Assembly (NCBI GenBank): GCA_963710375.1
Contig: CAVPZX010000003.1
Span: 288,001 to 352,000, forward strand
Reading direction: 5' to 3'
Source: Nitrospirota bacterium
Lineage (GTDB): Bacteria; Nitrospirota; Thermodesulfovibrionia; Thermodesulfovibrionales; Dissulfurispiraceae
Length of the DNA stretch: 64,000 nucleotides
Positions within the stretch are counted from its first letter, which is position 1. Every line of letters starts with the position of its first letter. This document shows, one piece after another, positions 5,710 through 52,884 of this stretch. Below the pieces are notes generated by a model. It ran no database searches, was not told the origin of the DNA, and saw only the letters and a list, made by a program, of their open reading frames with translations. A program made the translations under genes and the position numbers.

Positions 5710-5898
5710 ACCGCATTATTCATAAATTTATACAAGGAGCAGTCAGGCCACAGTGCTTCACTCATTCCCGCAAGGCATCCAGCCTTGCTCCGAGGCTATG
5801 ACAGCCTGCGTCACCATCCTTGGTGTCGCTTAGTCTGTCAAAGTCCGCTCAGCACCATGTCCCGCCTGCTCCTTGTATAAATTTATGAATAATGCGGT
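5710..5898. mobile_element. MITE-like element, family D
   Basis: Perfect 33-bp terminal inverted repeats (TIRs; accgcattattcataaatttatacaaggagcag), flanked on both sides by CTA (5707-5709 and 5899-5901); no transposase. Confidence 0.85.
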
Positions 5899-14043: not shown

Positions 14044-14508
14044 GTGTTTCAGGTGGCCCGCTCAGATTGCCCATCTATCAATAGACAAGGTTTTACGCTC
14101 CTCGAATTGATGATCGTGCTTTTTCTCATTTCGCTCATAATGGGACTCTCGGCGGTTTATTTTTCCAACGCAATGCCGTCAACCAAGCTTAATGCTGCAG
14201 TCAGGGAACTGTCTGCAACGATCCGTTATGCCCGAACACTTGCAATGATCGACGGCAAGCTCCAGACATTAAACATTGACCTCGATGCAAAAAGATACGG
14301 CATAGAAGGGCGCGGGTATAAAGACATCGATTCCGGGATAACAATAATGGCGCTCGATCCTTTTGCAGGAGAGGTGCGCAATGGAACATACCGTCTTATG
14401 TTTCAAGCGTCAGGAGGGGTGCAGGGAGGGACGATTGTCCTGGGCAGCGGGAAAAAGAAAGTCAGTATCGGACTTGATCCGGTTGTAGGATCAGTGGTAG
14501 TGAAATGA
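14044..14508 (+). CDS. gspH: T2SS minor pseudopilin, cluster 1
   Basis: G|FTLLELMIV N-methylation motif; position in operon. Confidence 0.8.
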   Translation: MFQVARSDCPSINRQGFTLLELMIVLFLISLIMGLSAVYFSNAMPSTKLNAAVRELSATIRYARTLAMIDGKLQTLNIDLDAKRYGIEGRGYKDIDSGITIMALDPFAGEVRNGTYRLMFQASGGVQGGTIVLGSGKKKVSIGLDPVVGSVVVK

Positions 14509-15071
14509 ATAATGTAAAGGGCTCGCGAATAAATAGCTTGTGCATTCAGGCGCTCAGATTTAGGTCAGATTTGGCTGATCCGACTGAGCAAAACCGCAGG
14601 CGTAGCAGAGCTACGTTGAGGATTTTGCGATTGAGGATCGGGCAAAGATGGCCTGAATCTGAGATGCATCAATGTGCAAGTTATTTATTCGCGAGCCCAG
14701 AAGGCTTTACGCTTCTTGAAATCCTTGTTGCACTCGCCCTGCTGAGCATAGCCTTACTGGTTATAGTGCAGCTTTTCTCCGCTGACCTGCGAGGCATATC
14801 TGTCTCGGACGATTACGTCGTTGCTGTTGCGACTGCAGAGTCCAGGATGAGGGAACTGCTTGACGATGATAAGCTTTCCGAGAAGAACTTGAGCGAGTAT
14901 ACCGATGATGGATACCGGATAGATACCTCTGTGAAAGAGTCGCTCACGGACAGGACCGAAAACTTACAGGTCAGAATCTTTGATATAGGACTAGCCGTTC
15001 ATTGGAGAAAATGGGGACGGGACAGGTCTGTCACCCTTAGGACCCTGAAAGTAATGAAGAAGGAACTATAA
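14505..15071 (+). CDS. gspI: T2SS minor pseudopilin with a 60-codon MITE insert in its leader
   Basis: G|FTLLEILVAL. Removing 14519-14698 gives a normal leader, MNNVKEG|F. Confidence 0.8.
   Translation: MNNVKGSRINSLCIQALRFRSDLADPTEQNRRRSRATLRILRLRIGQRWPESEMHQCASYLFASPEGFTLLEILVALALLSIALLVIVQLFSADLRGISVSDDYVVAVATAESRMRELLDDDKLSEKNLSEYTDDGYRIDTSVKESLTDRTENLQVRIFDIGLAVHWRKWGRDRSVTLRTLKVMKKEL
14519..14698 (+). mobile_element. MITE-like element, family A (copy 1)
   Basis: TIRs gggctcgcgaataaat.../...atttattcgcgagccc, 180 bp; a near-identical inverted copy lies at 48575-48754. Confidence 0.9.
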
Positions 15072-16679: not shown

Positions 16680-18217
16680 ATGGAAGCTATAAGAAAAATA
16701 ACTTCATTTGTCTTTGACACAGCCTCCGGGGTGAAGAAAATTACCATCCCCTTAAGGAATGCGCTTACGTTCAGTGCCGCTGATGAACGTATATCATACA
16801 AGAAAGAGCTTTGCGTAGCCATTGAAAAGACCGGCGTGTCCTTAGCATACGGGACGCGGTTCTTATCATCCCTCTCGGTCAAAGGGATGAGGCATTACCA
16901 TTACTCGTCTGCTGAGCATGCCTACCCTCAGCCAAAAGAAGCGGCATCGTCAGTAGTATTGGCCATTAGCGAATTCGGTGCTGTGGGGGCCGGTATTATT
17001 CTAAGCATTCCCAAATCCTGGGCAATTGTAAGAATCGTTGAATTTCCAGTAACGGTCAAGGAGAATATATCGGATGTCGTTACCTATGAGCTGGACCGGC
17101 TTTTCCCTTTCAGCCCCGAAGAGGCTTTTTATGACTTCATCATAACCGGCGAAACTCCTGATAATATCACTTTGGCCATTGCCGCATCAAAGGCTGATCT
17201 GATCAAATCCTATTGTGCAGCTCTTGCAGATGAGAGACTCAGTGTGGACAGGGTCACTTTAAACCTCACTTCCATAGGGTCATTGTGCCGCTCTCTCCAC
17301 AAAAATAGAGATGCCCTCTTTATCGAAACCGATAGCGATGAATATGAGGGCGCACTGTTCCTTGACACTCCCTGGCAGGGGTTGTGAGCGGCAGGTTTTC
17401 TGCTGATGACGATGCATCAAGGGCCGACATAATTTCGGCTGAGATGAGACCGCTTATCGATACCGCAAAAAGGCGTGATAACGACCCTCGTCTGTTTGCC
17501 CTGCTGCGTGGCTCCCCCGCCTTAAAAGAAAGACTCAGGACATCTCTTGCATTTCCCGTATCGCTCCTTGATGAGATTGATACCGGGCTCGGCCTCAGTT
17601 CCGGGCAAAAGAATGTCCTTTACGCGGCAGCAGGCGGTGTGATGGAATCGTTGCAGCCGGGACACCAAAAGCTGAATCTCCTCTCAAGGGGCCTGCATGA
17701 GAGAGCAAAAACACCTATGGGATTGACAGCCGTGCTTGTGGCGCTTTTAATGGTGTTATGGATAATGTGCGAGCTTGCGCCAATACGGGTTGAAACAAAA
17801 CGACTCAGGGAAATTGAGGGCCAGATAAAAATCCGCAAGAGCGGAATGAAGGATTGGGAAACGCTCAAAAACCAAATAGATGCCATCAACAGTGAGGTTG
17901 AAACAATCAACGGCTTTAAGGAAAACAGGCCGATGACACTGACTATTCTCAAAGAGCTCACTGAAGTACTACCTAGATCGGCGTGGCTGACAAGAGTGAA
18001 CATTGGCCAATCAACGGTCAACATCGAAGGCTATTCAACAAGCTCCGCCTCGGAACTCCTGTCAAGGCTTGAGGCATCAAAACATCTGGGAAAGGCTGAA
18101 TTTGCCTCTCCCACATTCAGGGATGTTCGTATGATGGCAGACCGCTTTAACATAAAAATGGAGATAAGGGGAGCCAAAGAAATGAAAGTGGCGCCGCATA
18201 AAGATGATAAAAAGTAA
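16680..18217 (+). CDS. gspL: GspL-like (PilM/PilN-type) protein, split by a frameshift near 17367
   Basis: The N-part has an actin-like ELDRLFPF...YD region. The C-part (17384-18217) has LNLL, a TM helix and LKELTEVLP..AWL. One added base joins the frames. Confidence 0.75.
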
Positions 18218-19344: not shown

Positions 19345-21069
19345 TTACTTGGAAGGCTCTTTGTTGACGGAGTCACCAGGCTGTTTGATGAACTCATTCA
19401 GCTTCATATCTTTAGTGTCGCCTTTAAGCCTGTCAAGATAATCCGTTGTTACCTTACCCGCTTCCTGCTGATTCTTGATCACATGCGGCGTAAGCAAGAC
19501 AATTATTTCCGTTTTTGTCCTTGTGATATTCCTGGATCCAAAGAGGTATCCCAGTATAGGAATATCCATGAGATACGGTATGCCTGATACGTTTGTTTCC
19601 TTGTTATCCTGTATGAGGCCCCCGATTACAATGGTCTGGCCGTCATTTACCACAACGTTTGTTTGCGCAGCACGCTTTGTAAAGACAAACTGTTGAGTAC
19701 CCAACACAGTTTGTGTATTGGCCTCCGTCACCTCTTGCGACACCTCCAGGCCGACAATTCCGCTCTCATTGATCTGGGGCTTTACTTTCAGTATTGTGCC
19801 GACGTCCTGATACTGGATTGTCAACAGGACGCTGCCGCTCGTGGTACTTGCAGTTACATTCGTCATCTGCGAGGTGGCGATTGGCACCTGACTGCCTATC
19901 TGTATCTTTGCCTCAAGGTTATCAGCCGCAATGATATGTGGAGAGGCCAGTATGGTGACCAGATCATTCGAAGCCATGGTATTAAGCAGCGCCTTCACAT
20001 TGCCTGCAACATCGGTGGCCGCATATGAGAAGCCTGGATATCCCGCCGACAATGGAGTGGCATTCAGCAAATTTGAGTTTTGTCCTATCTGCCCATTAAC
20101 ATCAATAGGTCTTGAAAAAGGCTTGGTTTTGATACTTGTAGTGTTTGACAAGACCCATTCCAGGCCGAATTGAAAATCCTTTGTGAGGGTCACTTCAGCT
20201 ATAAGCACTTCTATCATGACCTGACGAGGGGGTGTGTCGAGTTTTTTTATAGTTTCTTCAATAAACTTATAATCATCCGGCGTAGCCAGAACGACCAGCG
20301 AATTGGTGATCTCATCAGCGTATACTTTGGTCTCTTTAGATACTAAACCATCGGTCCCTGCTGTAAAACCGGCACTCCCGCCTGTTGCAGGCGCTGTCGT
20401 CGAAGCCGGCTGTGGATGCCCGGCAGCGCCAGGGCCCGCAGGCGCCTCGGGTATAAACCTGCCTGGCGCTGCTGGTCCGGCAGCGCCGGAGAATATTGAC
20501 TGCAGGAGTGATGCGATATGTTTCGCCTTCGTGTTTTGCAGAGGATACACAAAAACTTGAGGTGTCGTGCCCGGTATTTCGTTAATGGGAGCAATCCTGT
20601 AAAGTCCTTTATCCTCGACGAAACCGGCGCCGTTCATTTTCAGCAGTACCCCTATAAGCGGAAGCACTTCGTCCCTCGTGACCGGAGTGACTGTTCTGAA
20701 ATTGACCCTCCCTCTAACCTTCGGGTCGATCATGTAGTTCACTTTAAGTATGTCACCAAAAACGGTTTGTATAACATCGAATATATCGGCGTCATCAAAA
20801 TTGAAACTTACGTCAGCTTTTTTTTCAGCTCCCGGCCGCCCGGCAGAAGGTGCGACAGGAGCCACTCTAGGGGGCGGCAGCTGCTCGCGCGATTGAGGTT
20901 GAAAAACGGGTTGGGTCTGGGCTGCAGCTGCAATTTGAGACCCCTGGGTTGTCGTCTCCTCCGCGCGTGAAGGTATCCCCGCTGAGGTAATGGCAACGAC
21001 AGAAAATAAGATACCAATAACTAATTGGATCAAAATTCCGCAACGTCTCTTCAAAAAGGAAACCTCCAC
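19345..21069 (-). CDS. gspD: T2SS secretin, cluster 1 (convergent orientation, short N-region)
   Basis: VSFNFDDADI (N0), ADEITNSLVV, LDTPPRQVMIEVLIAEV, GQTIVIGGLI, GIPYLMDIPILGYLF, LLTPHVI. Confidence 0.93.
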   Translation of the reverse strand: MEVSFLKRRCGILIQLVIGILFSVVAITSAGIPSRAEETTTQGSQIAAAAQTQPVFQPQSREQLPPPRVAPVAPSAGRPGAEKKADVSFNFDDADIFDVIQTVFGDILKVNYMIDPKVRGRVNFRTVTPVTRDEVLPLIGVLLKMNGAGFVEDKGLYRIAPINEIPGTTPQVFVYPLQNTKAKHIASLLQSIFSGAAGPAAPGRFIPEAPAGPGAAGHPQPASTTAPATGGSAGFTAGTDGLVSKETKVYADEITNSLVVLATPDDYKFIEETIKKLDTPPRQVMIEVLIAEVTLTKDFQFGLEWVLSNTTSIKTKPFSRPIDVNGQIGQNSNLLNATPLSAGYPGFSYAATDVAGNVKALLNTMASNDLVTILASPHIIAADNLEAKIQIGSQVPIATSQMTNVTASTTSGSVLLTIQYQDVGTILKVKPQINESGIVGLEVSQEVTEANTQTVLGTQQFVFTKRAAQTNVVVNDGQTIVIGGLIQDNKETNVSGIPYLMDIPILGYLFGSRNITRTKTEIIVLLTPHVIKNQQEAGKVTTDYLDRLKGDTKDMKLNEFIKQPGDSVNKEPSK

Positions 21070-22253: not shown

Positions 22254-22786
22254 CGCGAAACAACTTTTTATTGACTTTGGCATTGTTCATAAGCATCTCG
22301 TTTGCCTTTGTCCTGCCTGCCGGGGCTTCCGACAGCGGTTATGAGCTCGCGGCCGGGGCAGGAAAGGGCTTGAACGATCTCAAATCGACTGAGGGAATAA
22401 TCCTTGGGGCCTGGATAACGAGGCTTTCCCCCCTGTTTGAACTGAGGATAGAGCCGAATGTGGAATACATAGCTGCAAGATCCGACCAATCGATGGTGTT
22501 TTACGGTGTGGGCCCTGTTGTAAGGTTTGGCTCTTATGGACAGAGCATCAATCCCTTTTTGGATGCCGGATGTGGAGTGAGCATTGGTTCAAAATCGCAG
22601 ATTTTCGACAGGAATTTTGGAAGAGACTTTTTCTTCAGTCCTACTGCCGGCGCCGGCATCAAGTTCGGCAAGTCGGAAAGCGGAGTCAGCCTTTTTGCAC
22701 GGTGGGTGCATCACTCCAACGCCGGGTTGTTTCCTCCCAATGAGGGATTAGACTCGCTGTATCTGCTCCTGGGCTATAGATTTTAG
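22250..22786 (+). CDS. pagL: PagL-like acyloxyacyl hydrolase (lipid A 3-O-deacylase family beta-barrel)
   Basis: Signal peptide; C-terminal H-H-S-N-A-G...N-E-G-L-D motif and terminal GYRF. Confidence 0.7.
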   Translation: MTRNNFLLTLALFISISFAFVLPAGASDSGYELAAGAGKGLNDLKSTEGIILGAWITRLSPLFELRIEPNVEYIAARSDQSMVFYGVGPVVRFGSYGQSINPFLDAGCGVSIGSKSQIFDRNFGRDFFFSPTAGAGIKFGKSESGVSLFARWVHHSNAGLFPPNEGLDSLYLLLGYRF

Positions 22787-22958
22787 GTAGTGGGCCAGTT
22801 TGCTTTTTACTCTGTATCAATTAGCCGTTCAATTCAATCACTGGCCTGTATCGAGCATTATCTGTGGTCGCCACTTCTATAATATGTGGGCTCGGCGTTA
22901 CTCGCCCACTATTGATAACCCAGGTGATTCAGAGCAAAAAGCAAACTGGCCCACTACC
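22786..22958 (+). mobile_element. MITE-like element, family C (copy 1)
   Basis: TIRs ggtagtgggccagtttgcttttt.../...aaaaagcaaactggcccactacc; an inverted homologous copy lies at 52577-52756. Confidence 0.85.
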
Positions 22959-23085: not shown

Positions 23086-25269
23086 ATGAAAAAAATGAAG
23101 TCTTTGTTGTCTATTGTCACTATACAGCTGATATTTATTCTTTTTATTTCAGGGCTTTCGTTTGCTGCTCCTGTAAAGGACCAGAACCGGGAACAAAAGG
23201 TCGCTTTTAATTTTGTCGATGTCGACCTCGGCGCATTAACAAAGTTTATCAGTGAAATTACAAAGAAAAATTTTATATTCGACGACAGGGTGAAGGGTAA
23301 GATAACGATAGTCACCCCGGCTAAACTCAATATAGATGATGCGTTTAATTTGTTTGTATCAGTTCTTGAGCTCAAAGGTTTTACAGTTGTGCCTGCCGGT
23401 GTGGACGCGTATAAAATTATTCCTTCAGTTGAGGCAAAACAGAAGGGAATCAGGGTGATGGTTGACAGACAGCCGGTCAATGACAGTTATATTGTACGTC
23501 TTATCAAACTTAAGAATATCCCGCCGGACGATGCTTTGAAGCTACTGTCGCCTGTTGTTTCAAAGGATGGTTATATGTCCGCTTTCGGACCCGGAAACAT
23601 GCTGCTGGTTATCGATTCGGGATCGAACGTAGAAAAGATTCTCTCGATTATCGATACCGTAGACCAACCGAATATGCTTGAAGAGCCCGATATGGTTTTT
23701 CTGAAACACGCGAGCGCAGATGCGGTGGCTCGTATTATTACTGAAGGCATAAGCCGAGCCGCCAGACCGCAGCCCGGCGCAGTTGCCGGCGAGGCGAAGG
23801 CAATAGCTGATCCGAGGCTTAATGCCGTTGTCCTATTTGGTGACAGGGGGACGCGGGAATCGATGAAGTCGCTCATTAGGCTCCTCGACGTGCCGTCCCC
23901 GGAAGCGCAGGGGAGAATAAATGTCTATTTTCTCGAAAATGCGGATGCGGTCGAACTGGCTAAAGTCCTTCAGGACATGCTCAAGGGAGCGCAGGTAACT
24001 CGCCAGGCGCCGGCCGGAGCGCAAGGCGCCCCGGTTGTTCCTTTCGAGGCGGGCGGGGGCATCACCATTACTGCTGACAAAGCCACGAATTCCCTTGTTA
24101 TCGTCGCTTCATATGCTGATTATCAGAACCTGGTTTCTACAATAAAGAAGCTCGACCGCAGGAGGAGACAGGTTTTTGTAGAGGCCATGATCGCGGAGGT
24201 GTCCCTTAACGGACTGCTTCAGCTCGGCACAAACTTCCGCCTCGCTGCACAACAAAACGGGAATCCGGTCTTTATAGGCGGCGTAGGTCAAGTTAGCCAG
24301 ACGACACTCCAGAACATAGTAACCGGGCTGACAGGGCTAACCCTTGGTGGATTGGGCAATTACTATACTATTCCGCAAAGTTTTATTCCCGGGGCAACAG
24401 CTGCTCAGCAGGTGCCGGGCATTGCGGCAATCTTTCAGCTAAGCGATTTCAAGGATGTGGTAAATGTCATTTCTACCCCGCAGATACTTACCTCGGACAA
24501 CAAGGCGGCTGAAATACTCGTTGGCGAGAATGTCCCGTTCATAGCATCCAGAGAACAAAGTATAGCGACCAGCGGTACGGTAATTAATGACATACAGAGA
24601 CAGGATGTTGGAGTAAAGCTCCAGATAACCCCGCAAATTACTGAGGGAGATTACGTCAAGCTCGATATTTATCAGGAAATATCATCAATCGAGCAGGCGA
24701 GTGATACTATTCTGACAAGCGTAGGGCCGACCATTGACAAGCGCTCGACAAAGACCTCTGTTGTTGTCAAAGACGGCGACACTGTGGTCATCGGGGGGTT
24801 GATGCAGGATTCCACGGAGAATTCGATAACAAAGGCCCCCTGGTTTGGAGACATTCCACTTTTGGGCTGGCTTTTCAAAACAAAAAGCGTTACCAAGACA
24901 AAGACGGACTTGCTGGTCTTCATCACCCCTCATCTGCTCAAGAAAGAGGATAGTTTGGCGCAGATAACGAAAGACAAGCGGAATGAATTAATGCTGGGAG
25001 AACAAGAGTTAGGAGAACAAGAAAGCGGCACCAGAGTCACCGGTGAAATCTTTGTGAAGTTTAAGGATGGCGTAACTGCTGAAAAGGCCCTTATGCTGCT
25101 TTCCGAAAAAGGTATGATGGTGACGGGCTATTCAGGGAGCACAAATGTTTACAAGATAAAGATAAAAGAAGGGATGCCTGTAAATGATGCTGTTAAAGAA
25201 CTTTCCGGAATGCCTGATGTAATGAACGCCGCGCCTGACAACGGGGACAACCGGAAACTTCAGAAATGA
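23086..25269 (+). CDS. gspD: T2SS secretin, cluster 2, with an extra C-terminal domain
   Basis: N0-N1-N2-N3 repeats, LDRRRRQVFVEAMIAEV, KAPWFGDIPLLGWLF, VFITPH, then a ~70-aa GEIFVKFK...DV..A.PD domain. Confidence 0.95.
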   Translation: MKKMKSLLSIVTIQLIFILFISGLSFAAPVKDQNREQKVAFNFVDVDLGALTKFISEITKKNFIFDDRVKGKITIVTPAKLNIDDAFNLFVSVLELKGFTVVPAGVDAYKIIPSVEAKQKGIRVMVDRQPVNDSYIVRLIKLKNIPPDDALKLLSPVVSKDGYMSAFGPGNMLLVIDSGSNVEKILSIIDTVDQPNMLEEPDMVFLKHASADAVARIITEGISRAARPQPGAVAGEAKAIADPRLNAVVLFGDRGTRESMKSLIRLLDVPSPEAQGRINVYFLENADAVELAKVLQDMLKGAQVTRQAPAGAQGAPVVPFEAGGGITITADKATNSLVIVASYADYQNLVSTIKKLDRRRRQVFVEAMIAEVSLNGLLQLGTNFRLAAQQNGNPVFIGGVGQVSQTTLQNIVTGLTGLTLGGLGNYYTIPQSFIPGATAAQQVPGIAAIFQLSDFKDVVNVISTPQILTSDNKAAEILVGENVPFIASREQSIATSGTVINDIQRQDVGVKLQITPQITEGDYVKLDIYQEISSIEQASDTILTSVGPTIDKRSTKTSVVVKDGDTVVIGGLMQDSTENSITKAPWFGDIPLLGWLFKTKSVTKTKTDLLVFITPHLLKKEDSLAQITKDKRNELMLGEQELGEQESGTRVTGEIFVKFKDGVTAEKALMLLSEKGMMVTGYSGSTNVYKIKIKEGMPVNDAVKELSGMPDVMNAAPDNGDNRKLQK

Positions 25270-26775
25270 AAACGATTGATGTTGTACGGGACGAGGATAT
25301 TGAACTCGCGTTGATAAAGGAAATACCTCTCTCTTTCGCAAAAGGCAACATGGTCATGCCTCTTAGAAGAGAGAAGGGCAGCCTTGTCGGGGCTGTTGCA
25401 GATGAGAGGGGAATTTTTGCTTTATGCGACATTTCCAGGCTGTATAATCTGAAACCGCTGGCCTTGAGTATTTCGCCTTCTGCCCTTAATGATGCAATCA
25501 ATAAATATTACGGCCAGGCAGGTTCAGCCGAAGACGTTATGGACAACATTGCGGGTGATGACCTTTCGGCTGTAGCGACTGAATTTGAAAAACCGAGGGA
25601 CATCCTTGAACTTACCGAAGACGCCCCTATTATCCGGCTTCTGAATGCCATTTTGCAACAGGCGATCAAAGAGCGTGCAAGCGACATCCATATAGAGCCC
25701 TACGAACGGGAGCTGGATGTGCGTATGAGGGTTGACGGAATACTTCATAGAGTACTCGCCCCTCCCAAGATAATACAGGATGCATTGATAAGCAGGGTGA
25801 AAATCATGGCAAATCTCGATATAGCCGAGAAGCGGCTGCCGCAGGATGGTAGGATCAGGCTCATTGTCGGCGGCAGGGATATCGATATAAGGGTATCGAT
25901 TGTTCCGACCACCTACGGCGAGCGGGCAGTGCTGAGGCTTCTTGACAGAAAGCAGGGCGTTATCGGGTTATGGGAGATGGGTCTAGATGCAAACGATGAA
26001 CGTCGCATGGAGACCATGCTCCAGAGGACAAACGGCATTATACTTGTCACGGGACCAACGGGAAGCGGGAAAACTACAACCCTTTATGCAGCGTTGAACA
26101 GGATCCATACAGAGGCAAAGAATATCATTACAGTTGAGGACCCGGTGGAGTATCAGACTGAAAGGGATCGGCCAGATACATGTCAACCCGCGCGTGGGCC
26201 TTACGTTTGCGTCAGGGCTGAGATCAATTTTAAGGCAGGACCCGGATGTTATCATGCTGGGTGAGATTAGAGATTTCGAGACTGCCGAGGTTGCTATCCA
26301 GGCGTCACTCACCGGTCATCTCGTTCTCAGCACGCTTCACACTAATGACGCCCCTTCCGCCATTGCAAGGCTCATCGATATGGGCGTAGAGCCTTTTCTG
26401 GTTGCCTCGTCACTCGCCGGCGTCCTGGCCCAGAGGCTTGTCCGTGTCATCTGTCCTAACTGTAAAGAACCGTATGCGCCTGCAGAAGAAGAGTCGAAAT
26501 ACATTACCGCGCCGGTGCTTTACCGCGGCAGGGGATGTGACAAATGCAATAATAAGGGGTATATCGGGAGGACAGGCATATTCGAACTCCTTGACGTCAA
26601 CAATTCCATACGTCAGATGATTACAGGGAAGACCGATTCCCAAAGCATCAAGAATGTTGCGGTATCGGGAGGCATGAGAACACTGAGGATGGATGGTTTT
26701 GAAAAAGCTGTCAAAGGCGTTACGTCTATCGAGGAGGTCTTGAGGGTGACGCAAAAAGATTACGTAGAAAGCTAA
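25266..26775 (+). CDS. gspE: T2SS ATPase, cluster 2, with a +1 frameshift at 26157
   Basis: Two ORFs (25266-26264 and 26134-26775) join into EDPVEYQ|LKGIGQ if the extra A at 26157 is removed; the cluster-1 paralog reads EDPVEYQLKGINQ. Confidence 0.92.
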
Positions 26776-28774: not shown

Positions 28775-28779
28775 GGGTT

Positions 28780-28970
28780 TTTCTGCAATTCAGACAGTAC
28801 GGGGTAATTTTTCTTTGCGAGCGATTAGCCCGCTAAGCCAGACCTGCTGTCTATACGGAATATCATCTATGTTCCAGTTATACATGTGGGCTCGGCGTTA
28901 CTCGCCCTTTGCAGATAACCCAGGCGCTCGACTGCAGAAAAACAACCCCGTACTGTCTGAATTGCAGAAA
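28780..28970. mobile_element. MITE-like element with family B termini and a family C-like interior
   Basis: 26-bp perfect TIR tttctgcaattcagacagtacggggt, flanked by GGTT on both sides; the interior contains atgtgggctcggcgttactcgccc...gataacccagg, shared with family C. Confidence 0.85.
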
Positions 28971-29402
28971 GGTTTTACCCTTCTGGAACTCCTGGTGGTG
29001 ATCTTTCTGGTTTCCCTGCTGATGGCTATTGTCTTTCCGTCCATGTATGGTGCGGAAGGGATAAGTTTGAAGTCTGATGCACAGAGGATAGCATCGGTGT
29101 TGAGGTATCTGAACGACAGCTCTATTACAACAAAAGATCCTTATTCTCTCACGTTCGATTTCGGGGGAAATACCATATCATGGAAAGGTCCTGATGTAGA
29201 GAAGACCGAACAGTTAAGGAGTCTGTCGTCGGTTGAGCTGCCTTCAAAGGGGAAGGTTGGTGAAGGCCAGGTGATCGTATCTTTCGGCCCGCTCGGGATA
29301 CAGGAAAACCTTGTGGTCCATCTGCGGCAGGCAGGGGAGACAATGATGGTAGTTTTCAATCAATTGAGCGGAAGGGCCGCAATAAAAACAGATGACCGGT
29401 GA
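28869..29402 (+). CDS. gspH: T2SS minor pseudopilin, cluster 2, leader derived from the MITE
   Basis: G|FTLLELLVV with the Gly codon at 28971. The nearest in-frame ATGs (28869, 28884) lie inside the MITE; start uncertain. Confidence 0.75.
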   Translation: MFQLYMWARRYSPFADNPGARLQKNNPVLSELQKGFTLLELLVVIFLVSLLMAIVFPSMYGAEGISLKSDAQRIASVLRYLNDSSITTKDPYSLTFDFGGNTISWKGPDVEKTEQLRSLSSVELPSKGKVGEGQVIVSFGPLGIQENLVVHLRQAGETMMVVFNQLSGRAAIKTDDR

Positions 29403-29766: not shown

Positions 29767-30391
29767 AAACAATCCTGTACTGTCTGAATTGCGGACTCAT
29801 AAGTCCTGTCACGGGTTTACGCTCATAGAGATGCTGCTCGCCATTGCGCTTTTATCCATCGTGCTGGTCGCTCTCTACGGCACTTTTTTCGTATCACAAA
29901 AGGCGATAGAGGGCGCTGACGATACCCTTGTGAGACTTCAGGAAGGCAGGACTGCTCTGGATATTTTACGCCGGGAACTTGCTTCCGCGGTTTTTAGCGG
30001 GAGTAACAACCTGACGCTTTTTACTATGAAGGAAACTGATATATATGATAAAAAGGTTTCGACGCTTTCATTTACCGCATTCTCTCCGTATATACCGGGA
30101 CTCGCGAATATACAATATTATGTGGAAGAAAGGAAGGGAAGGCTGGTCCTCCTGAAAAAAATAAATCCTTACTGGAACATTGACACAAATATGAAGGGCA
30201 CCGAAATTATCGATGATGTCGAAAGATTTACTGTTGAGAGCCTCTATAACGGACAATGGGTAAGCATCTGGGACACAGGAGAGACCGTTAAATTGCCTGA
30301 TGAACTCAGAGTTACGATTACGGTCCGTATTAGAGACAAGCTCATACCCCTTTTTGAGATCATCCGACCCAGGATAGGGAAGGCGATATGA
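29741..30391 (+). CDS. gspJ: T2SS minor pseudopilin, cluster 2
   Basis: G|FTLIEMLLAI; W...WD.....LPDELRV C-terminus. Start at 29741 or 29756. Confidence 0.85.
   Translation: MHHLIMRHRNNPVLSELRTHKSCHGFTLIEMLLAIALLSIVLVALYGTFFVSQKAIEGADDTLVRLQEGRTALDILRRELASAVFSGSNNLTLFTMKETDIYDKKVSTLSFTAFSPYIPGLANIQYYVEERKGRLVLLKKINPYWNIDTNMKGTEIIDDVERFTVESLYNGQWVSIWDTGETVKLPDELRVTITVRIRDKLIPLFEIIRPRIGKAI
29767..29792. mobile_element. Solo family B right end inside the gspJ leader
   Basis: aaacaatcctgtactgtctgaattgc versus aaacaaccccgtactgtctgaattgc at 28940-28965; both encode NNPVLSEL. Confidence 0.75.
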
Positions 30392-40815: not shown

Positions 40816-40884
40816 TTTCTTTTAACGATATTTTTGATTATACAACATACTGCGTGCATATATAAAAGGTTAGAGCATAATCAG

Positions 40885-40913
40885 TTGACATTACTCAGTT
40901 TATCTGTTACTTT
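40885..40913 (+). promoter_or_regulatory. Sigma70-type promoter, copy 1
   Basis: TTGACA-N17-TACTTT with TGn extension; ATG begins 5 nt after the -10 box; homologous to 43573-43601. Confidence 0.7.
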
Positions 40914-40918
40914 AACCT

Positions 40919-42524
40919 ATGGGCATTGAGACGGAAAAAGGGAATGGCATAGTGCCCCATACGGAAGAAAGTCACCAGAGTACGACAGATCTTATCCTGG
41001 CAAGGCTGCAGGAATACCACGACTTCCCGGCTATGTCAAATACTGTTGATGTTATGAATCGGTTCAAGGCTTCCGAAGATGTCTCAGTTTCCGAATTTGC
41101 CAATATTATTTTGAAGGATTATGGTTTAACGTCAAAGATTTTGAAACTTGTAAACAGCGTCAGCTATGCTCAGTTCGGAGAGGTTACGACTATTTCTCGT
41201 GCAATAGTCCTCATTGGGTTTGAAAACATCAAGAATCTTGCTGTTACACTGATGCTTTTTGATTATTTCCAGAAAAACAGACTCAAATCCCGAGCATGTG
41301 GATACAAAGGTCAAATCCTTATACAGCGCAATCATGGCTCAGAAGGTCTCGCATGAGAAATCTTTAGACAATGAGGAAGAAGCGTTTATCTGTTCGCTTT
41401 TCCACACTTTCGGCAAAATGCTGGTGACCTTTGCCCTGCCGGAGAAAATAGAGGAAATAAAACTTCTCAGCAGTGAAAAAGGTATTTCAGAAAATGAGGC
41501 TGCACTCTCTGTCCTCGGCGAGCGTTATGAAGAGGTGGGCGTTGCAATGGCCAGGGACTGGCATTTTCCGACCATAATCATTAATAGCATGCACAAACTC
41601 CGCGGCATGGAAATTACTACCGGCGCCGACAAACTCGATAAACTCAATGTCGTTGCCTTCTTCTCCAATGAAGTCGCTAATATATTGTCGACAACTACTA
41701 ATAAATATGAGATGGATGAGAAAATCGGAAAACTCGCAAGAACGTTCAGGCCCCACCTGGGTGATCTGGACAGGAGGATGGACAGAATCATCAATGCGAG
41801 TCTTGATGACCTGAATGAGTTTTCAAGAATTTTTAATGTCAATCTTAGCGCGGTCCCTTTTACAAGGCAGTTGCTGGTATGGGCCGGTAAGCCGGAGCAG
41901 GCTGTGCAACCCAAAAACGAGCTGCTCTTCGCTGACTTTTCGACTGAAGAGCTTGAAACTATTGATATTATCCTTGATTCCGAAAAAAGAGACACCCCCG
42001 AAAGTATTTTCACGAAGGGCATTCAGGATATCAATAGTTCGATACTGAGCGATTTCAACATCAACGATGTCGTCAGGATTGTGCTGGAAACCATGTACAG
42101 GGGCATGCAATTGTCGGGGCAGGCAAAGGCCCTGTTCCTGGTAAAGGAGACCAAAGCGCCTATAATGAAGGTCAGATTCGGGTTCGGGAGCCGGGTTGAG
42201 GAACTGAAAAAATGGTTCGAAATTTCACTAGACGACCCCACCGACATCTTCAATATATCTATAGTCAAGGGGCATGACCTTGTAGTGAAGAACATCGAGT
42301 CTCCCGATATTAAAAAGTTGCTGCCCAAATGGTTCAGAAGCAAGGCATTTTCGAGGATCTTTTTTGTCATTTTGCCTATCATAGTTAATAAAAAGCCTTT
42401 GGGGATATTCTATATAGAGGGGGACAGGGAAGACTTTCAGAAAGTTTCCGCCGTGCATTTAAACTACCTGAAAATGTTGCGCGATCAGACGGTCGTGGCT
42501 ATCAGACAGAAACATTGGTACTAA
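40919..42524 (+). CDS. HDOD plus C-terminal GAF-like protein, copy 1 (+1 frameshift at 41281)
   Basis: DFPAMS, ILKDYGLTSKILKLVNS, TISRAIVLIG, EEAFICSL.H.FGK, W.FP. Colinear with 44817-46391 once the extra A is removed. Start at 40919 or the GTG at 40952. Confidence 0.85.
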
Positions 42525-43013
42525 ATGAAGATCCCCGAACCTAATATGACTTTTGTCTTTATTGCGAAGGAGGAGATACTCCGGAACATTGTCAACACCC
42601 ATGATTTTATCCTGGTCCAGGGCTGGAAAGGTACAGGAAAGACTGTTACCGCGCTTAAAGCCGTCGCCGGGATGGGAGATATATATTATTATAATGGGTC
42701 GGCAGAGGAAATACCGCAACATACCGGCCAACTGAACGTTGTGAAAAACTGCCAGGAGCTGCGCGCCATTCAGCCCGGGAAGCAGTGCATCATCTTCGAT
42801 AATCTGAACCATCTCGACAGTGAAGCGCGCAATATTTTAAAGGATATGATACTGGAAAGGATAAAAGACAGAAAAATACTTGTTATCACACAAGTGGTGC
42901 TCGATGCGCAGGACATCCTGGGGAATATGGATGTTGTTGTTCGCTTCAGGCAGAACACCGCGGAGATGCTGGATACGAAATTGTATAACCTAAATAGTTG
43001 TTGCCGTTTTTAA
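42525..43013 (+). CDS. Small P-loop NTPase, copy 1
   Basis: Walker A GWKGTGKT; Walker B-like CIIFDN; 162 aa. Confidence 0.8.
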   Translation: MKIPEPNMTFVFIAKEEILRNIVNTHDFILVQGWKGTGKTVTALKAVAGMGDIYYYNGSAEEIPQHTGQLNVVKNCQELRAIQPGKQCIIFDNLNHLDSEARNILKDMILERIKDRKILVITQVVLDAQDILGNMDVVVRFRQNTAEMLDTKLYNLNSCCRF

Positions 43014-43022
43014 AATTCGTGC

Positions 43023-43063
43023 ATCTGAGCGCCTGAATGCGCAAGTTATTTATTCGCGAGCCC
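43023..43063. mobile_element. Solo end of family A MITE
   Basis: atctgagcgcctgaatgcgcaagttatttattcgcgagccc matches 48714-48754. Confidence 0.85.
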
Positions 43064-43508
43064 TCAATTCCATGTATAGCTTTTTTTTCTCACATGCCCC
43101 TTTCCAGCCGCACCCGTTGCAGGATGATTCATACCATGCCCGAAAGATTGAGGGAAGCATATTCCGGATGTCCGTCCATCTGACAAACTGGCCGGATAAA
43201 AGTCCGAGCAGACGCAAGGCCAGACGGTCCATGGCCAGGATGTCATCCTCAACCTGGGCGCTGTGCATGCACCTGTTAAATTTCAAAGAAGGGCAGTATT
43301 TACAAATGGCATCGGCCCCGTTATGCACCTGAACTATGCCCTCTTCCGCGACACCAATAACGTTCCTCAAGTTTTCGACAAACGCGGCGTCATAGCCTTC
43401 GCCCGAGAAAAAATGAAGACAGATTAGGTGATGGCCCCTTAATGAGCAACTCTCAATCTTTTGGCTGTGGTTCTTCTTAAATGCGCTTTTCAGGCTAATC
43501 AATGACAT
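43050..43508 (-). CDS. DUF1284-family Cys/His-rich protein
   Basis: LRGHHLICL.FF.GEGY...FVEN, DAIC..CP, C..C.W...C. Confidence 0.8.
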   Translation of the reverse strand: MSLISLKSAFKKNHSQKIESCSLRGHHLICLHFFSGEGYDAAFVENLRNVIGVAEEGIVQVHNGADAICKYCPSLKFNRCMHSAQVEDDILAMDRLALRLLGLLSGQFVRWTDIRNMLPSIFRAWYESSCNGCGWKGACEKKKLYMELRARE

Positions 43509-43572
43509 TATTAATTATATAACATACCTAGTGCATATATAAACGGTTAGAGCATCTTCGGTAGCGGGTCAG

Positions 43573-43601
43573 TTGACAGAGCCCAATATATCTGTTAGTT
43601 T
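43573..43601 (+). promoter_or_regulatory. Sigma70-type promoter, copy 2 (leaderless arrangement)
   Basis: TTGACA-N17-TAGTTT with TGn extension; GTG start 5 nt after the -10 box, no SD. Confidence 0.7.
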
Positions 43602-43606
43602 AACTT

Positions 43607-44800
43607 GTGGACAAGTTGAAGGGAAGAGATATTATCGAAAAGATCAAGGCCGGCTATTCGCTGCCTTCTCTATCAGCCGTTGCACTCAGGCTCGTTGAAA
43701 TAGCATCCAACGAATATGTTTCCCTGAGTGAAATGGCGGACCTTATTGAGAAGGACCCCGGTCTTACGGTCCGTCTGGTCACTATTGCCAACAGCGCATT
43801 TTTCAGGTCTACGGATCCGGTCTCGACTGTGGAGCAATCTGTCATGAGAGTCGGCGTCAACCATTTAAGAATCATGGCTTTATCATTGTCACTGAGAGAT
43901 ACGTTCCCGATGGGCAAACTCGGTCCAATGGATTACGAGAAGTTCTGGCGTTCTTCGCTCTACCAGGCATTAATCGCGAAATCTTTTGCACAAAGGTTGC
44001 AGACATGCAGTCCTGAAGAGGCCTTTGTTGCCGGTCTTGTCCTGGAGATCGGGCTGCTGATATTTGTTGACACCTTCTTAAAGGGACATGTAATTGAAAA
44101 GAATCTGGACCTTCATCCTTTGGAGAAACTCCTGGAATGGGAGGCCATGCATTACAGGACCGATCACAGGGAGATCGGGGCTGCAGCGCTGAGTTATTGG
44201 AAGTTTCCTTCAGTTATTATAGAATGCCAGCATGTCCATAATATAGAATCCAGGGACGAACAGGTACCTCCTCTGGCCCTGATCTGTGAAATGGCGCGTG
44301 AATTCTCCGCGCTAATTTGTGAAGAATCGATGGAGTGGAGCCCGCTTTTCAGCAGGGCTGAAGCTATGTACGGCATTAATCAGGGTTTGCTCACAGATAT
44401 TCTTGTCGCCACATTTGATGAGGTCCAGGAGGTTGCCGATGGACTCAAGGTCAATATGAACAAGGAGAAAGATCTTATCGCTCTCATCGAAAAAGCGAAC
44501 CTTTCTCTGGGCGGTCTTTCGGAAAAGATGCTAAAGCTTCAGGAAACAGCATTAAAACATGGCTTGCCGTCTTTCGAAAGTCTGGGAGATCTCGAAGAAA
44601 AGTCAGCCGTAAGGGACACGTTGCAGGCAGTAGCGCATGAGATAAGGAACCCGCTTCTGGCGGTCAGCGGTTTTGCGAAGAAACTTTCGACAGCCCTCGA
44701 CCCTGCCTCTGACGGCTGGAAATATGTACAGGTAATTGTCGAGGAGTCCAGGAGGCTCGAAAGCGCTCTGGCAAACATGACCTGCTCTAACAAGTGCTGA
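43607..44800 (+). CDS. HDOD plus HisKA (DHp) protein lacking an HATPase domain
   Basis: LPSLS, DPGLTVRL..IANSAFF, FWRSS, EEAFVAGL..EIG, W.FP; H-box AVAHEIRNPL...GF, E..RLE, then stop. Confidence 0.85.
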   Translation: MDKLKGRDIIEKIKAGYSLPSLSAVALRLVEIASNEYVSLSEMADLIEKDPGLTVRLVTIANSAFFRSTDPVSTVEQSVMRVGVNHLRIMALSLSLRDTFPMGKLGPMDYEKFWRSSLYQALIAKSFAQRLQTCSPEEAFVAGLVLEIGLLIFVDTFLKGHVIEKNLDLHPLEKLLEWEAMHYRTDHREIGAAALSYWKFPSVIIECQHVHNIESRDEQVPPLALICEMAREFSALICEESMEWSPLFSRAEAMYGINQGLLTDILVATFDEVQEVADGLKVNMNKEKDLIALIEKANLSLGGLSEKMLKLQETALKHGLPSFESLGDLEEKSAVRDTLQAVAHEIRNPLLAVSGFAKKLSTALDPASDGWKYVQVIVEESRRLESALANMTCSNKC

Positions 44801-44816
44801 AAAAGGGGATGGCATA

Positions 44817-46391
44817 GTGTCACAAACGCAAGAAAATGGCCAGAGCACAAAAGATCTGATCCTGGCAAGGCTGCAGGAAAACAGTGATTTTCCTGCCATG
44901 TCTAATACCATGAACATGATTAATCAGTTGAAGGCTGCCGAAGACGCCTCTGTTACTGAATTAGCCAATATTGTTTTGAGGGATTATGCATTGACGTCGA
45001 AGATCATAAAAGTTGTAAACAGCGTCAGTTATTCCCAGTTCGGGGAAGTCACTACTATTTCCCGTGCAATCAATCTGCTTGGGTTTGAAAACATCAAGAA
45101 TCTTTGCCTCACTTTAATGCTTTTTGGTCATTTCCGGGAGAACAGCTCAAATGTCGAACATGTAGATACTATGATCAAATCTTTTTACAGCGGATTCCTG
45201 GCCCAGAAGATATGCGGCGAGGTATCCTTTGAGAACAAGGAAGAGGCGTTTATCTGTTCGCTGCTCCACAATTTCGGCAAGATGCTGATATCCTTTGCCT
45301 TGCCTGAAACAATAAAGGAGGTAAAATCTGTAAGCCATGAAAGAGGTATTTCAGAAGATGCGGCTGCCCTTTCGGTCCTCGGCGGGAGATATGAGGAGAT
45401 AGGCATGGCAATAGCCAAGGGATGGAATTTCCCGACCAAGATCATTCGCAGCATGCACAAACTCAGCAGAACGGAAGTCAAAGACTCGTCCGATGAGATC
45501 GATCAGCTCATTAGCATTGCTTCCCTTTCCAATGAAATATCGAACATACTATCGAGCAGTTCGGAAAAGAAGGAGATGGATGAGAGGCTTGGCAAACTTG
45601 CCGACATGTTCAAGACTACTTTCACCGGGTTGAACCGCAAGGTGATAACCGGTGTTATTAATGAAAGTCTTGAAGACCTGAATCAGTTTTCGGCTATTTT
45701 TCATATCAACATGGATGAAGTTCCCTTTAACTGGCAGTTGATGACCTGGTCGGACAAGGTGGTCGAACCGTCAGCAACGGTTGCAGGAGTTCTACACGCG
45801 GACTTTACATCTGAACAACTAAAGTCGATTGATGTTATTGCCGGATCTGAAAAAGAAGATACCCCGGATAGCGTATTCTCAAAGGGCTTGCACGATGTCA
45901 CTTGTTCATTATTGAGCAGTTTCTCGCTGAACGATATAATAAGGATTGTGCTGGAAACTATATACAGAGGCATGCAGCTGTCAGGGGAGGGGAAAACCCT
46001 CTTTTTGGTCAAGGATACAGAGGCCCCTGTCATGAGAATAAGATTCGGGTTAGGGAGCGGGATTGAGGGATTGAAGAGGTGGTTTAATGTTACGTTGGAT
46101 GATTCCGGCGATATTTTTAATAAGGCGATAGTTAAGCAGCATGATCTCGTTATCAAGAGCGTCGAGCCTCCAGCTATTAAAAAATTGTTGCCCGAATGGT
46201 TCAAACATAGGGCATCTGCCGGAATCTTTTTTATTGTTTTACCTATTATAATAAATAATAAACCGATCGGTATGTTTTATGTAGAAGGGAATAAGAAAGA
46301 ATTTCTGAAAGTCTCAGCTGAACATTTAAACTACCTGAAAATGTTGCGCGATCAGACGGTCGTTGCGATCAAACAGAAACGTTGGAGCTAA
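44817..46391 (+). CDS. HDOD plus C-terminal GAF-like protein, copy 2
   Basis: Intact paralog of 40919-42524; ends LPIIINNKPIGMFYVEG...LKMLRDQTVVAIKQ. Confidence 0.88.
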   Translation: MSQTQENGQSTKDLILARLQENSDFPAMSNTMNMINQLKAAEDASVTELANIVLRDYALTSKIIKVVNSVSYSQFGEVTTISRAINLLGFENIKNLCLTLMLFGHFRENSSNVEHVDTMIKSFYSGFLAQKICGEVSFENKEEAFICSLLHNFGKMLISFALPETIKEVKSVSHERGISEDAAALSVLGGRYEEIGMAIAKGWNFPTKIIRSMHKLSRTEVKDSSDEIDQLISIASLSNEISNILSSSSEKKEMDERLGKLADMFKTTFTGLNRKVITGVINESLEDLNQFSAIFHINMDEVPFNWQLMTWSDKVVEPSATVAGVLHADFTSEQLKSIDVIAGSEKEDTPDSVFSKGLHDVTCSLLSSFSLNDIIRIVLETIYRGMQLSGEGKTLFLVKDTEAPVMRIRFGLGSGIEGLKRWFNVTLDDSGDIFNKAIVKQHDLVIKSVEPPAIKKLLPEWFKHRASAGIFFIVLPIIINNKPIGMFYVEGNKKEFLKVSAEHLNYLKMLRDQTVVAIKQKRWS

Positions 46392-46392
46392 A

Positions 46393-46869
46393 ATGGAATG
46401 CCCGGCCCCTCAAATGGCTTTTATTGCGAAGGAAGAGATACTCCGGAACATCGTCAGTACACATGCTGTCATACTGATCGAAGGCTGGAAAGGTACAGGG
46501 AAGACTATTACCGCGCTTAAAGCCGTCAACGGCAAGGGAGATATCTACTATTACAACGGTACGGCGGGGGAAATACCGCAGTGTTCCATCCAACCGAACA
46601 TTGTGAAAAACTGTCAGGAACTGCGCGCCATTCCGCCCGGAAAACAGTGCATCATCTTTGATGATCTGAACCGTCTGGACAGCGAAGCACGCAGTATTTT
46701 AAAGGATATGGTGCTGGAAAGGAAGAAAGACAGGAAAATAGTCGTTATCACGCGGGTGGTTCTCGATGCACAGGACATTCTGGAAAATATGGATGTTGTT
46801 GTTCGCTTCAAGCAGAATACCGCAGAGATGCTGCATACGAAACTGTATGAGCTGGACAGCTTTCAGTAA
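46393..46869 (+). CDS. Small P-loop NTPase, copy 2
   Basis: GWKGTGKT, CIIFDD; close paralog of 42525-43013. Confidence 0.8.
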   Translation: MECPAPQMAFIAKEEILRNIVSTHAVILIEGWKGTGKTITALKAVNGKGDIYYYNGTAGEIPQCSIQPNIVKNCQELRAIPPGKQCIIFDDLNRLDSEARSILKDMVLERKKDRKIVVITRVVLDAQDILENMDVVVRFKQNTAEMLHTKLYELDSFQ

Positions 46870-46874
46870 CAATG

Positions 46875-47093
46875 CAATTCAGACAGTAGATGATTCTCTT
46901 TCGCTACTCTCCGTTTTGACAGTTCTATGACTCGTTTCGCTACAGTCGCAAAATTCCCTTCGGTCAGTTTCGCTCCTGACTGCCACCCCAAAAGTCTGTG
47001 ACTTTTGGGGACCCCGGACTTTTACGCTCACTCGCCAAGAACTGTTTCCAAAACTCCGCTAATGCTTCAGAGATTCATCTACTGTCTGAATTG
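46875..47093. mobile_element. MITE-like element, family B (copy 3)
   Basis: TIRs caattcagacagtagatga / tcatctactgtctgaattg; interior related to 26805-26994, plus an extra ccccaaaagtc-tgt-gacttttgggg hairpin. Confidence 0.85.
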
Positions 47094-48574: not shown

Positions 48575-48754
48575 GGGCTCGCGAATAAATAACTTGCACA
48601 TTGATGCATCTCAGATTCAGGCCATCTTTGTCCGATCCTCGGTCGCAAAATTCTCAACGTAGCTATGCTACGCCTGCGGTTTTGCTCAGTCGGATCAGCC
48701 AAATCTGACACAAATCTGAGCGCCTGAATGCACAAGTAATTTATTCGCGAGCCC
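48575..48754 (-). mobile_element. MITE-like element, family A (copy 2)
   Basis: Inverted near-identical copy of 14519-14698; flanked by TTA and TCA. Confidence 0.9.
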
Positions 48755-52522: not shown

Positions 52523-52576
52523 AATTTCCCTTTAATACATTAAGTATATCACCTATGATTCCGGCAGATGAAGCAC

Positions 52577-52756
52577 GCCTTGTTAGTGGGCCGGTTCGTT
52601 TTTGCTCTGTATCACCTGGGTTATCAGTAGTGGGCGAGTAACGCCGAGCCCACATATATAGAAGTGGCGACGACAGAAAATGCCCAATATAGGCTAGTGA
52701 TTGAATTGAACGGATAATTGATACAGAGCAAAAACGAACCGGCCCACTAACAAGGC
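52577..52756 (-). mobile_element. MITE-like element, family C (copy 2)
   Basis: Long perfect TIR gccttgttagtgggccggttcgtttttgctctgtatca; inverted homolog of 22786-22958. Confidence 0.88.
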
Positions 52757-52884
52757 CTTTTTTATATTGAGAATTAAGTGTCAGTGGTGGTAAAATATTT
52801 ATTCTTAGTGACTTACATAATATAATTATCTTTTCAGCAGGGAGTATTCGGAGTTTATTGTTATTAGGCTAAGTTATTGATTTC

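Follow-up and report, generated by a model that had tools for sequence, protein, structure and literature searches.

An in-frame MITE in the leader of a gspI-like pseudopilin gene: a probable passenger in a segment expected to be cut off

A mobile repeat lies in the 5′ end of a gspI-like gene, and we favour, at a probability of roughly 70% on the sequence data at hand, the reading that this non-autonomous MITE with ISAzo13-type ends is translated from the ATG overlapping gspH, that the resulting 67-residue leader is cut off by prepilin peptidase, and that the mature pseudopilin is normal. The insert would then be tolerated passenger DNA with no new function, and its removal at the protein level is what the known chemistry of PilD would lead one to expect. 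The alternatives weighed below and this reading partly overlap and are not all exclusive, and the likelihoods attached to them should be taken in that sense. Positions refer to the window, i.e., the whole stretch of 64,000 nucleotides that was analyzed (G000:C3:288001-352000). The features at and around the insertion, with their basis, are as follows.

14044..14508, plus strand: gspH-like pseudopilin gene; its TGA stop overlaps the gspI ATG (ATGA)
14505..15071, plus strand: gene for a gspI-like pseudopilin precursor of 188 aa, of which the first 67, up to a Gly, form the leader (open reading frame, profiles, position between gspH and gspJ, weak fold matches)
14516..14518, plus strand: left target triplet AAA, a degenerate TNA site (flank comparison of copies)
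14519..14698, plus strand: the 180-bp family A MITE in gspI, with inverted ends of 33 bp and ISAzo13-like termini; it has no stop in the gspI frame
14664..14666, plus strand: internal ATG (MHQ...), the alternative start codon, lying inside the hairpin's 3′ arm
14699..14701, plus strand: right target triplet AGA (flank comparison of copies)
14703..14720, plus strand: prepilin cleavage motif G/FTLLE (sequence, profile)
43023..43063, minus strand: family A terminal fragment, 41 bp (sequence match)
48575..48754, minus strand: a further full copy of family A, between genes, 95% identical to the one in gspI and flanked by TGA and TAA

The element has the hallmarks of a MITE, being short with terminal inverted repeats, multi-copy and dispersed, associated with a TNA duplication and devoid of a transposase of its own. 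Its 180 bp are predicted to fold into a single hairpin of -113.8 kcal/mol (z -15.7) that none of 200 shuffled sequences equaled. The gspI-borne copy differs from the family A majority sequence at 5 of 180 positions. That majority sequence, derived from 27 copies, has only one open frame of six, the one used in gspI, and this frame is open in 11 of the genome's 27 near-full copies as well as in 14 of 39 copies from relatives, which indicates that the open frame is a trait of family A and not peculiar to the gspI site. An Rfam search with the element gave no match. NCBIfam holds models of Rickettsia palindromic elements (RPEs), and the search of it with the 59-codon peptide matched no model (E 0.01). 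A preliminary description of this DNA had placed an element of exactly 60 open codons between MNNVK and EG/FTLLE. The placement, the 180 bp and the absence of a stop hold, but the element begins at codon position 3 and thus supplies 59 complete codons and part of the codons for Lys5 and Pro65. The same description reckoned that excision restores a 7-residue leader; the arithmetic is right, but given the 3-bp target duplication made by the family, imperfect at this site (flanks AAA and AGA), the pre-insertion leader probably had 6 residues, with 183 bp added, and either length preserves the gspI frame. The near-identical copy it reported at 48575-48754 is indeed there, 95% identical and in the opposite orientation. 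Short-read contigs from two studies (runs X3 and X4) span both element junctions, those of X5 span the left one, and no joint skipping the whole element was found among the short-read contigs of four runs. The window holds more MITE-like inverted-repeat elements (5710-5898, 22786-22958, 46875-47093, 52568-52765) and a duplicated block of about 3.9 kb, 70-84% identical, at 40824-46719.

The host gene sits in a complete gspG-E-F-H-I-J-K-L-M-N run. Its product carries the class III motif and scores above the cut-off of the N_methyl profile and below those of the GspI/XpsI models (TIGR01707, 36.1 bits against a cut-off of 44.35), and its top three fold matches are all T2SS pseudopilins (XcpGHIJK model, EpsI-EpsJ), at weak E values of 0.015-0.06. 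The GspI label derives from the gene position between gspH and gspJ together with the sub-threshold profile and the weak fold matches. In the predicted model of the precursor the mature part is mostly confident, and the leader has a pLDDT of 53-66. With 12 K/R and 6 D/E the 67-residue leader carries a net charge of +6 and has no hydrophobic stretch, which fits a positive-inside topology and cytoplasmic cleavage after Gly (PMC4471445, PMC10191384). The gspD of this first cluster lies at 19345-21069 on the minus strand, convergent with gspG-N.

Insertions could also be tolerated if gspI or the whole cluster were silent or decaying and nothing were made. The window does show a gspL split at 17367 and a second-cluster gspE split near 26200, but the first of these comes down to one missing G that short-read contigs of X3, X4 and X5 (two studies) supply, so that the gspL frameshift is an assembly error, and the remaining genes of the first cluster are all whole. 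The second-cluster gspE (25266-26775) appears as two overlapping ORFs and may be another assembly error. The genome has an intact prepilin peptidase (A24) gene, and pairwise dN/dS of mature GspI against nine relatives is 0.27-0.41, both of which speak for a working gene; the lineage-assigned changes in mature GspI relative to the locus L080 are 2 synonymous and 2 replacing, too few for a test. We find decay or silence hardly credible on this evidence.

The start codon deserves closer attention. If translation began at the internal ATG at 14664, 12 element codons would be translated, the leader would have an ordinary 14 residues, and the upstream ATG would be a relic or the source of a minor product. 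Databases hold the gspI protein as 188, 151 and 135 residues, and gene callers picked the internal ATG for the 135-aa form (P0129) and, as MHQ-start calls, for P0013 and P0015; an element in the leader explains this inconsistent annotation. The internal ATG is also in frame with the downstream gene in 8 of the 18 family A copies that have a same-strand gene, and Di Nocera 2013 (PMC3733652) warns that repeats at annotated N-termini are often extragenic. However, the internal ATG lies within a stem of -114 kcal/mol, with a predicted mean unpaired probability of 0.15 against 0.68 for the ATG at 14505, and its anti-SD pairing is weaker (-2.8 vs. -4.0 kcal/mol). Orthologs without an insertion have the ATGA overlap with gspH in the same position. 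Remnants of the element that have lost the internal ATG remain in frame, including one at the gspI site itself (P0010), and all three full copies in prepilin leaders are open throughout, compared to 22 of the 63 full copies elsewhere; this comparison uses copies that precede a prepilin motif, since counting copies inside ORFs would be circular (an ORF requires an open frame). The hairpin begins 14 nt after the first base of the ATG at 14505 and could hamper initiation there. Taken together, we consider the internal start unlikely, though worth keeping in mind, and favor the ATG that overlaps gspH.

The preliminary description called for an alignment of gspI orthologs that would reveal the empty site. 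No exact empty allele was found across 20 genome loci, 14 metagenome loci, 123 leaders and four runs, and none of the 20 orthologous genome loci has the family A element. At least 6 of those 20 loci carry other repeats at the gspI leader, five of which are in frame from a start at the gspH stop. The leaders of the 123 homologous proteins range from 5 to 82 residues, with 21 of them at least 30 residues long. Two of these proteins, P0013 and P0015, begin with the last 12 residues of the family A element, which indicates an element at the same site in both. In P0010, which is 88% identical, MNNVK is followed by a 6-residue end-to-end remnant in frame from which the internal ATG is absent. The closest element-free relatives, P0131 and P0132, are 93% identical in the mature part and have unrelated 8-aa leaders. 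The gspI tree is compatible with one insertion or with several.

This turnover also bears on the possibility that the insert is kept because its RNA hairpin tunes the distal operon from gspI onward, e.g., by nuclease cleavage or slowed initiation, with the peptide being incidental. The gspI hairpin is very stable, 20 of the 27 near-full family A copies have the same orientation as the upstream gene, and MITE hairpins can change mRNA stability (PMC3733652, PMC2229807). But the same site in orthologs holds unrelated repeats, remnants or nothing, within leaders of such varied length, and the hairpin has been lost repeatedly through deletion with no conserved sign of a regulatory role. A regulatory hairpin is thus a very unlikely reason for the presence of the element compared with toleration as a passenger.

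Family A is represented in this genome by 45 loci, 27 near-full and 18 fragmentary, and the gspI copy is the only full one inside a real gene. The flanks of the near-full copies have A at -1 and T at +1 in 25 of 27 cases each, the 3-bp TNA duplication is exact for 10 of the 27 (and for 15 of 39 copies from relatives), and 6 of the 27 start within 1 nt of the upstream stop codon. Within the genus, the element has strong matches in 7 of 9 further genomes. In a scan of 300 further genomes from the phylum, the terminal pattern turned up no more often than expected from background, as 11 single matches. Named public records with the element are mostly Nitrospirota, one of them labeled Dissulfurispiraceae. 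Several copies (e.g., G000:C2:313124, C2:756117, C5:504392) have matching changes in both terminal repeats, which suggests arm-to-arm correction, and a smaller hairpin repeat is nested in several others (G000:C5:79315, L103, P0005-P0007), with the frame kept in three proteins.

The link to ISAzo13 comes from a search of 150 further genomes of the class for the PF07592 transposase, in which 6 genomes yielded a total of 12 loci. The right ends at all 12 loci resemble the family A end (12-18 of 21 bases, 7-55 nt past the transposase match), 9 of the 12 score above every control window, and the closest, in genome G371, agrees at 18 of 21 bases. Family A resembles ISAzo13-family insertion sequences in its end sequence and its TAA/TTA-type flank and differs from them in encoding no transposase. 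The PF07592 transposase had no match in this genome (G000) or in G003, G005, G008 and G041, and a terminal-pattern scan of genome contigs for an autonomous partner gave 14 loci, with no complete insertion sequence recognized among the matches listed. An IS5-type affiliation was considered and given up. In G041 (Pirellulales) the family A end appears at four contig termini (L056-L059) with TTA/TAA flanks and a different, unassembled interior, possibly a larger relative.

Insertion into prepilin leaders is not confined to gspI of the first cluster. Among 66 full family A copies in eight genomes, only four are intragenic, three in prepilin leaders and one in the signal N-region of a 5′-nucleotidase. 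The three full copies just before a prepilin motif (3/66) all have the same orientation and an open frame. The second T2SS cluster provides two full copies, both in frame: one in the gspI leader of G008, flanked by a perfect TGA/TGA duplication at the gspH stop, and one in the gspJ leader of G003, at the gspI stop. Remnants of family A occur in second-cluster gspH of G008 and G003 and in gspI of G003, and several leader insertions lie exactly on the upstream stop codon. In a PilV-like prepilin, family A is present as a full copy in P0005 and as remnants in G000 and G003, and the G008 gene has a full copy of another MITE, family B. All five family A remnants at prepilin junctions, which were found by position, are in frame and lack the internal ATG (chance 0.004). 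Among nine proteins with the family A peptide we counted P0004, P0005 and P0007; the others are three short hypothetical ORFs, gspI itself, and P0006 and P0008, which may start downstream. Within the window, family B has entered the second cluster as follows.

28784..28966, plus strand: family B MITE, 183 bp, in frame in the second-cluster gspH leader; start inferred at ATG 28746, giving a 76-aa leader
29767..29792, plus strand: family B terminal remnant in frame in the second-cluster gspJ leader (sequence match)

The second-cluster gspH of G005 has an empty site and no start after the gspG stop, from which it follows that the gspH start lies upstream. Family B (28775-28975 and L181) inserts at the G-F codons of two different prepilin genes, and in both its target duplication of about 9-10 bp recreates the cleavage site downstream.

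The T2SS operon offers an internal control, since some of its proteins have cleaved N-termini and others do not. Across 36 cluster loci, 33 of 104 cleaved leaders of H, I, J and K are lengthened, i.e., at least 12 residues above the family's lower quartile, compared to 0 of 78 uncleaved termini of F, L, M and N. Kinship among the genomes and the small target size of F and M mean that the nominal P of 1e-9 makes this contrast look stronger than it is. For these counts, dropping rows without a start near the upstream stop reduced the cleaved set from 127 to 104 and the uncleaved set from 92 to 78, with G and E left out. Added length alone does not prove a repeat; tandem or hairpin repeats were flagged in 20 of the 127 cleaved and none of the 92 uncleaved rows. 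GspL, with a terminus of 41-50 residues that is lengthened in 0 of 21 cases, is the fairest uncleaved control. The mapping of family A copies that the preliminary description had suggested, with a test for enrichment in cleaved leaders, thus comes out in its favor, both in the three in-frame copies before prepilin motifs and in this contrast.

The genome as a whole points in the same direction. Six MITE families of seven or more copies comprise 177 loci, and 10 of these lie in ORFs, namely four in prepilins, four in class I/II signals (one of which probably starts downstream) and two, short fragments, elsewhere. Export signals therefore account for 8 of 10 intragenic loci and 5 of 5 long ones, against about 20 prepilin genes (19 Pfam hits plus one) in a crude model of 2944 genes with heuristic gene and signal-peptide calls. 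Lipoprotein signal N-regions carry, in frame, a full MITE of another family (G000:C2:181462-181583) and a family A remnant (C5:371662-371698). Short heptamer repeats are translated in many signal peptides and also in loops and C-termini of cytoplasmic and membrane proteins, which means that leaders are not the sole tolerated sites. One such repeat is translated in a loop of the prepilin peptidase itself (G000:C3:30301-30333), and a family of multi-pass membrane proteins has long translated heptamer arrays between helices (G000:C5:211100-218103, C2:824504-827128, C3:147769-148559).

It should be considered whether the excess in prepilin leaders mainly reflects insertion preference, that is, TNA stops at overlapping junctions, perhaps near GGCTTT-like sequence, with cleavage playing a minor part. 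Several leader insertions fall on the upstream stop itself, 6 of 27 copies begin no more than 1 nt from a stop, and family B landed twice at the G-F codons themselves. On the other hand, GspM overlaps the upstream stop by 14 nt, a register in which an inserted element would be open, and still 25 of the 26 GspM tails are 5-6 residues long; the GspL terminus is never lengthened; and the same leaders are used by unrelated repeat families. Target preference probably contributes to the excess yet is insufficient alone, and we regard it as decidedly unlikely to be the main cause. The view that the leader is a tolerated site, put forward in the preliminary description, is instead supported by in-frame full copies and ATG-less remnants in prepilin leaders together with the lack of any lengthening among uncleaved termini. 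Repeats have landed in leaders repeatedly, likely because the leader is cut off and discarded, which would leave the mature protein unharmed.

The passenger reading can be put as a sequence of events. An ISAzo13-type transposase acting in trans would insert family A at TNA triplets, which are often the stop codons of adjoining genes; where an operon is tightly packed, an insertion at such a junction would end up in the 5′ end of the following gene; it would persist if its open frame matched that of the gene and its peptide belonged to the part that is removed; and later internal deletions could shrink the insert with the frame kept. A broader proposal, on which we put even odds, is that the N-regions of cleaved export signals, chiefly prepilin leaders, are the main coding refuge of long mobile repeats in bacteria, with signal peptidases acting as unwitting agents of excision at the protein level, leaders passing in cycles from insertion to in-frame collapse to replacement, and arbitrary leaders of 60-85 residues being routine substrates of prepilin peptidase. 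Such cases provide natural substrates for probing the limits of length and sequence in class III leaders (67, 76 and ~87 residues predicted, compared to the 6-26 described). They also add a protein-level route by which selfish DNA may persist in conserved operons, one for which the uncleaved termini serve as an internal control.

Compared with characterized systems, the gspI precursor has much of a conventional class III signal peptide. PilD cleaves after Gly-1 on the cytoplasmic side, and the leader is needed for efficient processing (PMC4471445, PMC10191384). T2SS pseudopilins share with gspI a hydrophilic, net-positive leader, Gly-1, Phe+1, Glu+5 and a hydrophobic helix (PMC4471445, PMC10191384). 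What differs is that the gspI leader has 67 residues and is mostly transposon-derived, whereas characterized class III leaders have 6-26 aa (PMC4471445), which puts it well beyond the range for which processing is described.

Translated palindromic repeats have precedents. RPEs are palindromic repeats of ~150 bp with an open frame that are found in frame in protein genes, much like family A (PMC10969869, PMC2229807), and their insertions (Ogata et al.) are neutral or nearly so, as tested for Gmk (PMC10969869, PMC2229807). RPE peptides, however, stay in the mature protein, often in unrelated genes, whereas few full copies of family A lie within genes (4 of 66), and those that do occupy cleaved signals. 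The likeness to RPEs drawn in the preliminary description is therefore apt for in-frame insertion in conserved genes and does not extend to homology (no RPE homology in NCBIfam, E 0.01). Among the multicopy sequences of Geobacter are palindromic repeats and heptamer repeats that, as here, occur both in intergenic DNA and within genes, where they cause no frameshift (PMC2700814, PMC2996986), and the central palindrome of a 24-member family, GRCGTAGCGCTGCTACGCC, resembles the family A core hairpin by eye; the terms "pilin" and "signal peptide" are absent from the available main texts of these two papers, whose supplements could list cases. Further in-frame repeats in genes are REPs (PMC3733652) and the Coxiella QMITEs, mostly at 3′ ends (PMC5896051). 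The available text of PMC10969869, PMC2229807, PMC2700814, PMC2996986, PMC2759123, PMC3733652, PMC5896051 and PMC6497953 makes no mention of repeats in prepilin leaders, and a literature search, with most subscription papers outside its reach, found no published account of them. Closest in position is the enterobacterial RU-2/YPAl in YPO1552, in which a MITE frame forms the N-terminus of an exported protein, as here, and is proposed to build the predicted signal peptide of a new protein (PMC2759123). Unlike RU-2/YPAl, family A would be a passenger in a class III leader that already belonged to a conserved machine, and alleles with an empty site or a remnant occur alongside it. In-frame repeats of the RPE type are known, and insertion into prepilin leaders is a variant of that theme with good comparative support at the level of sequence.
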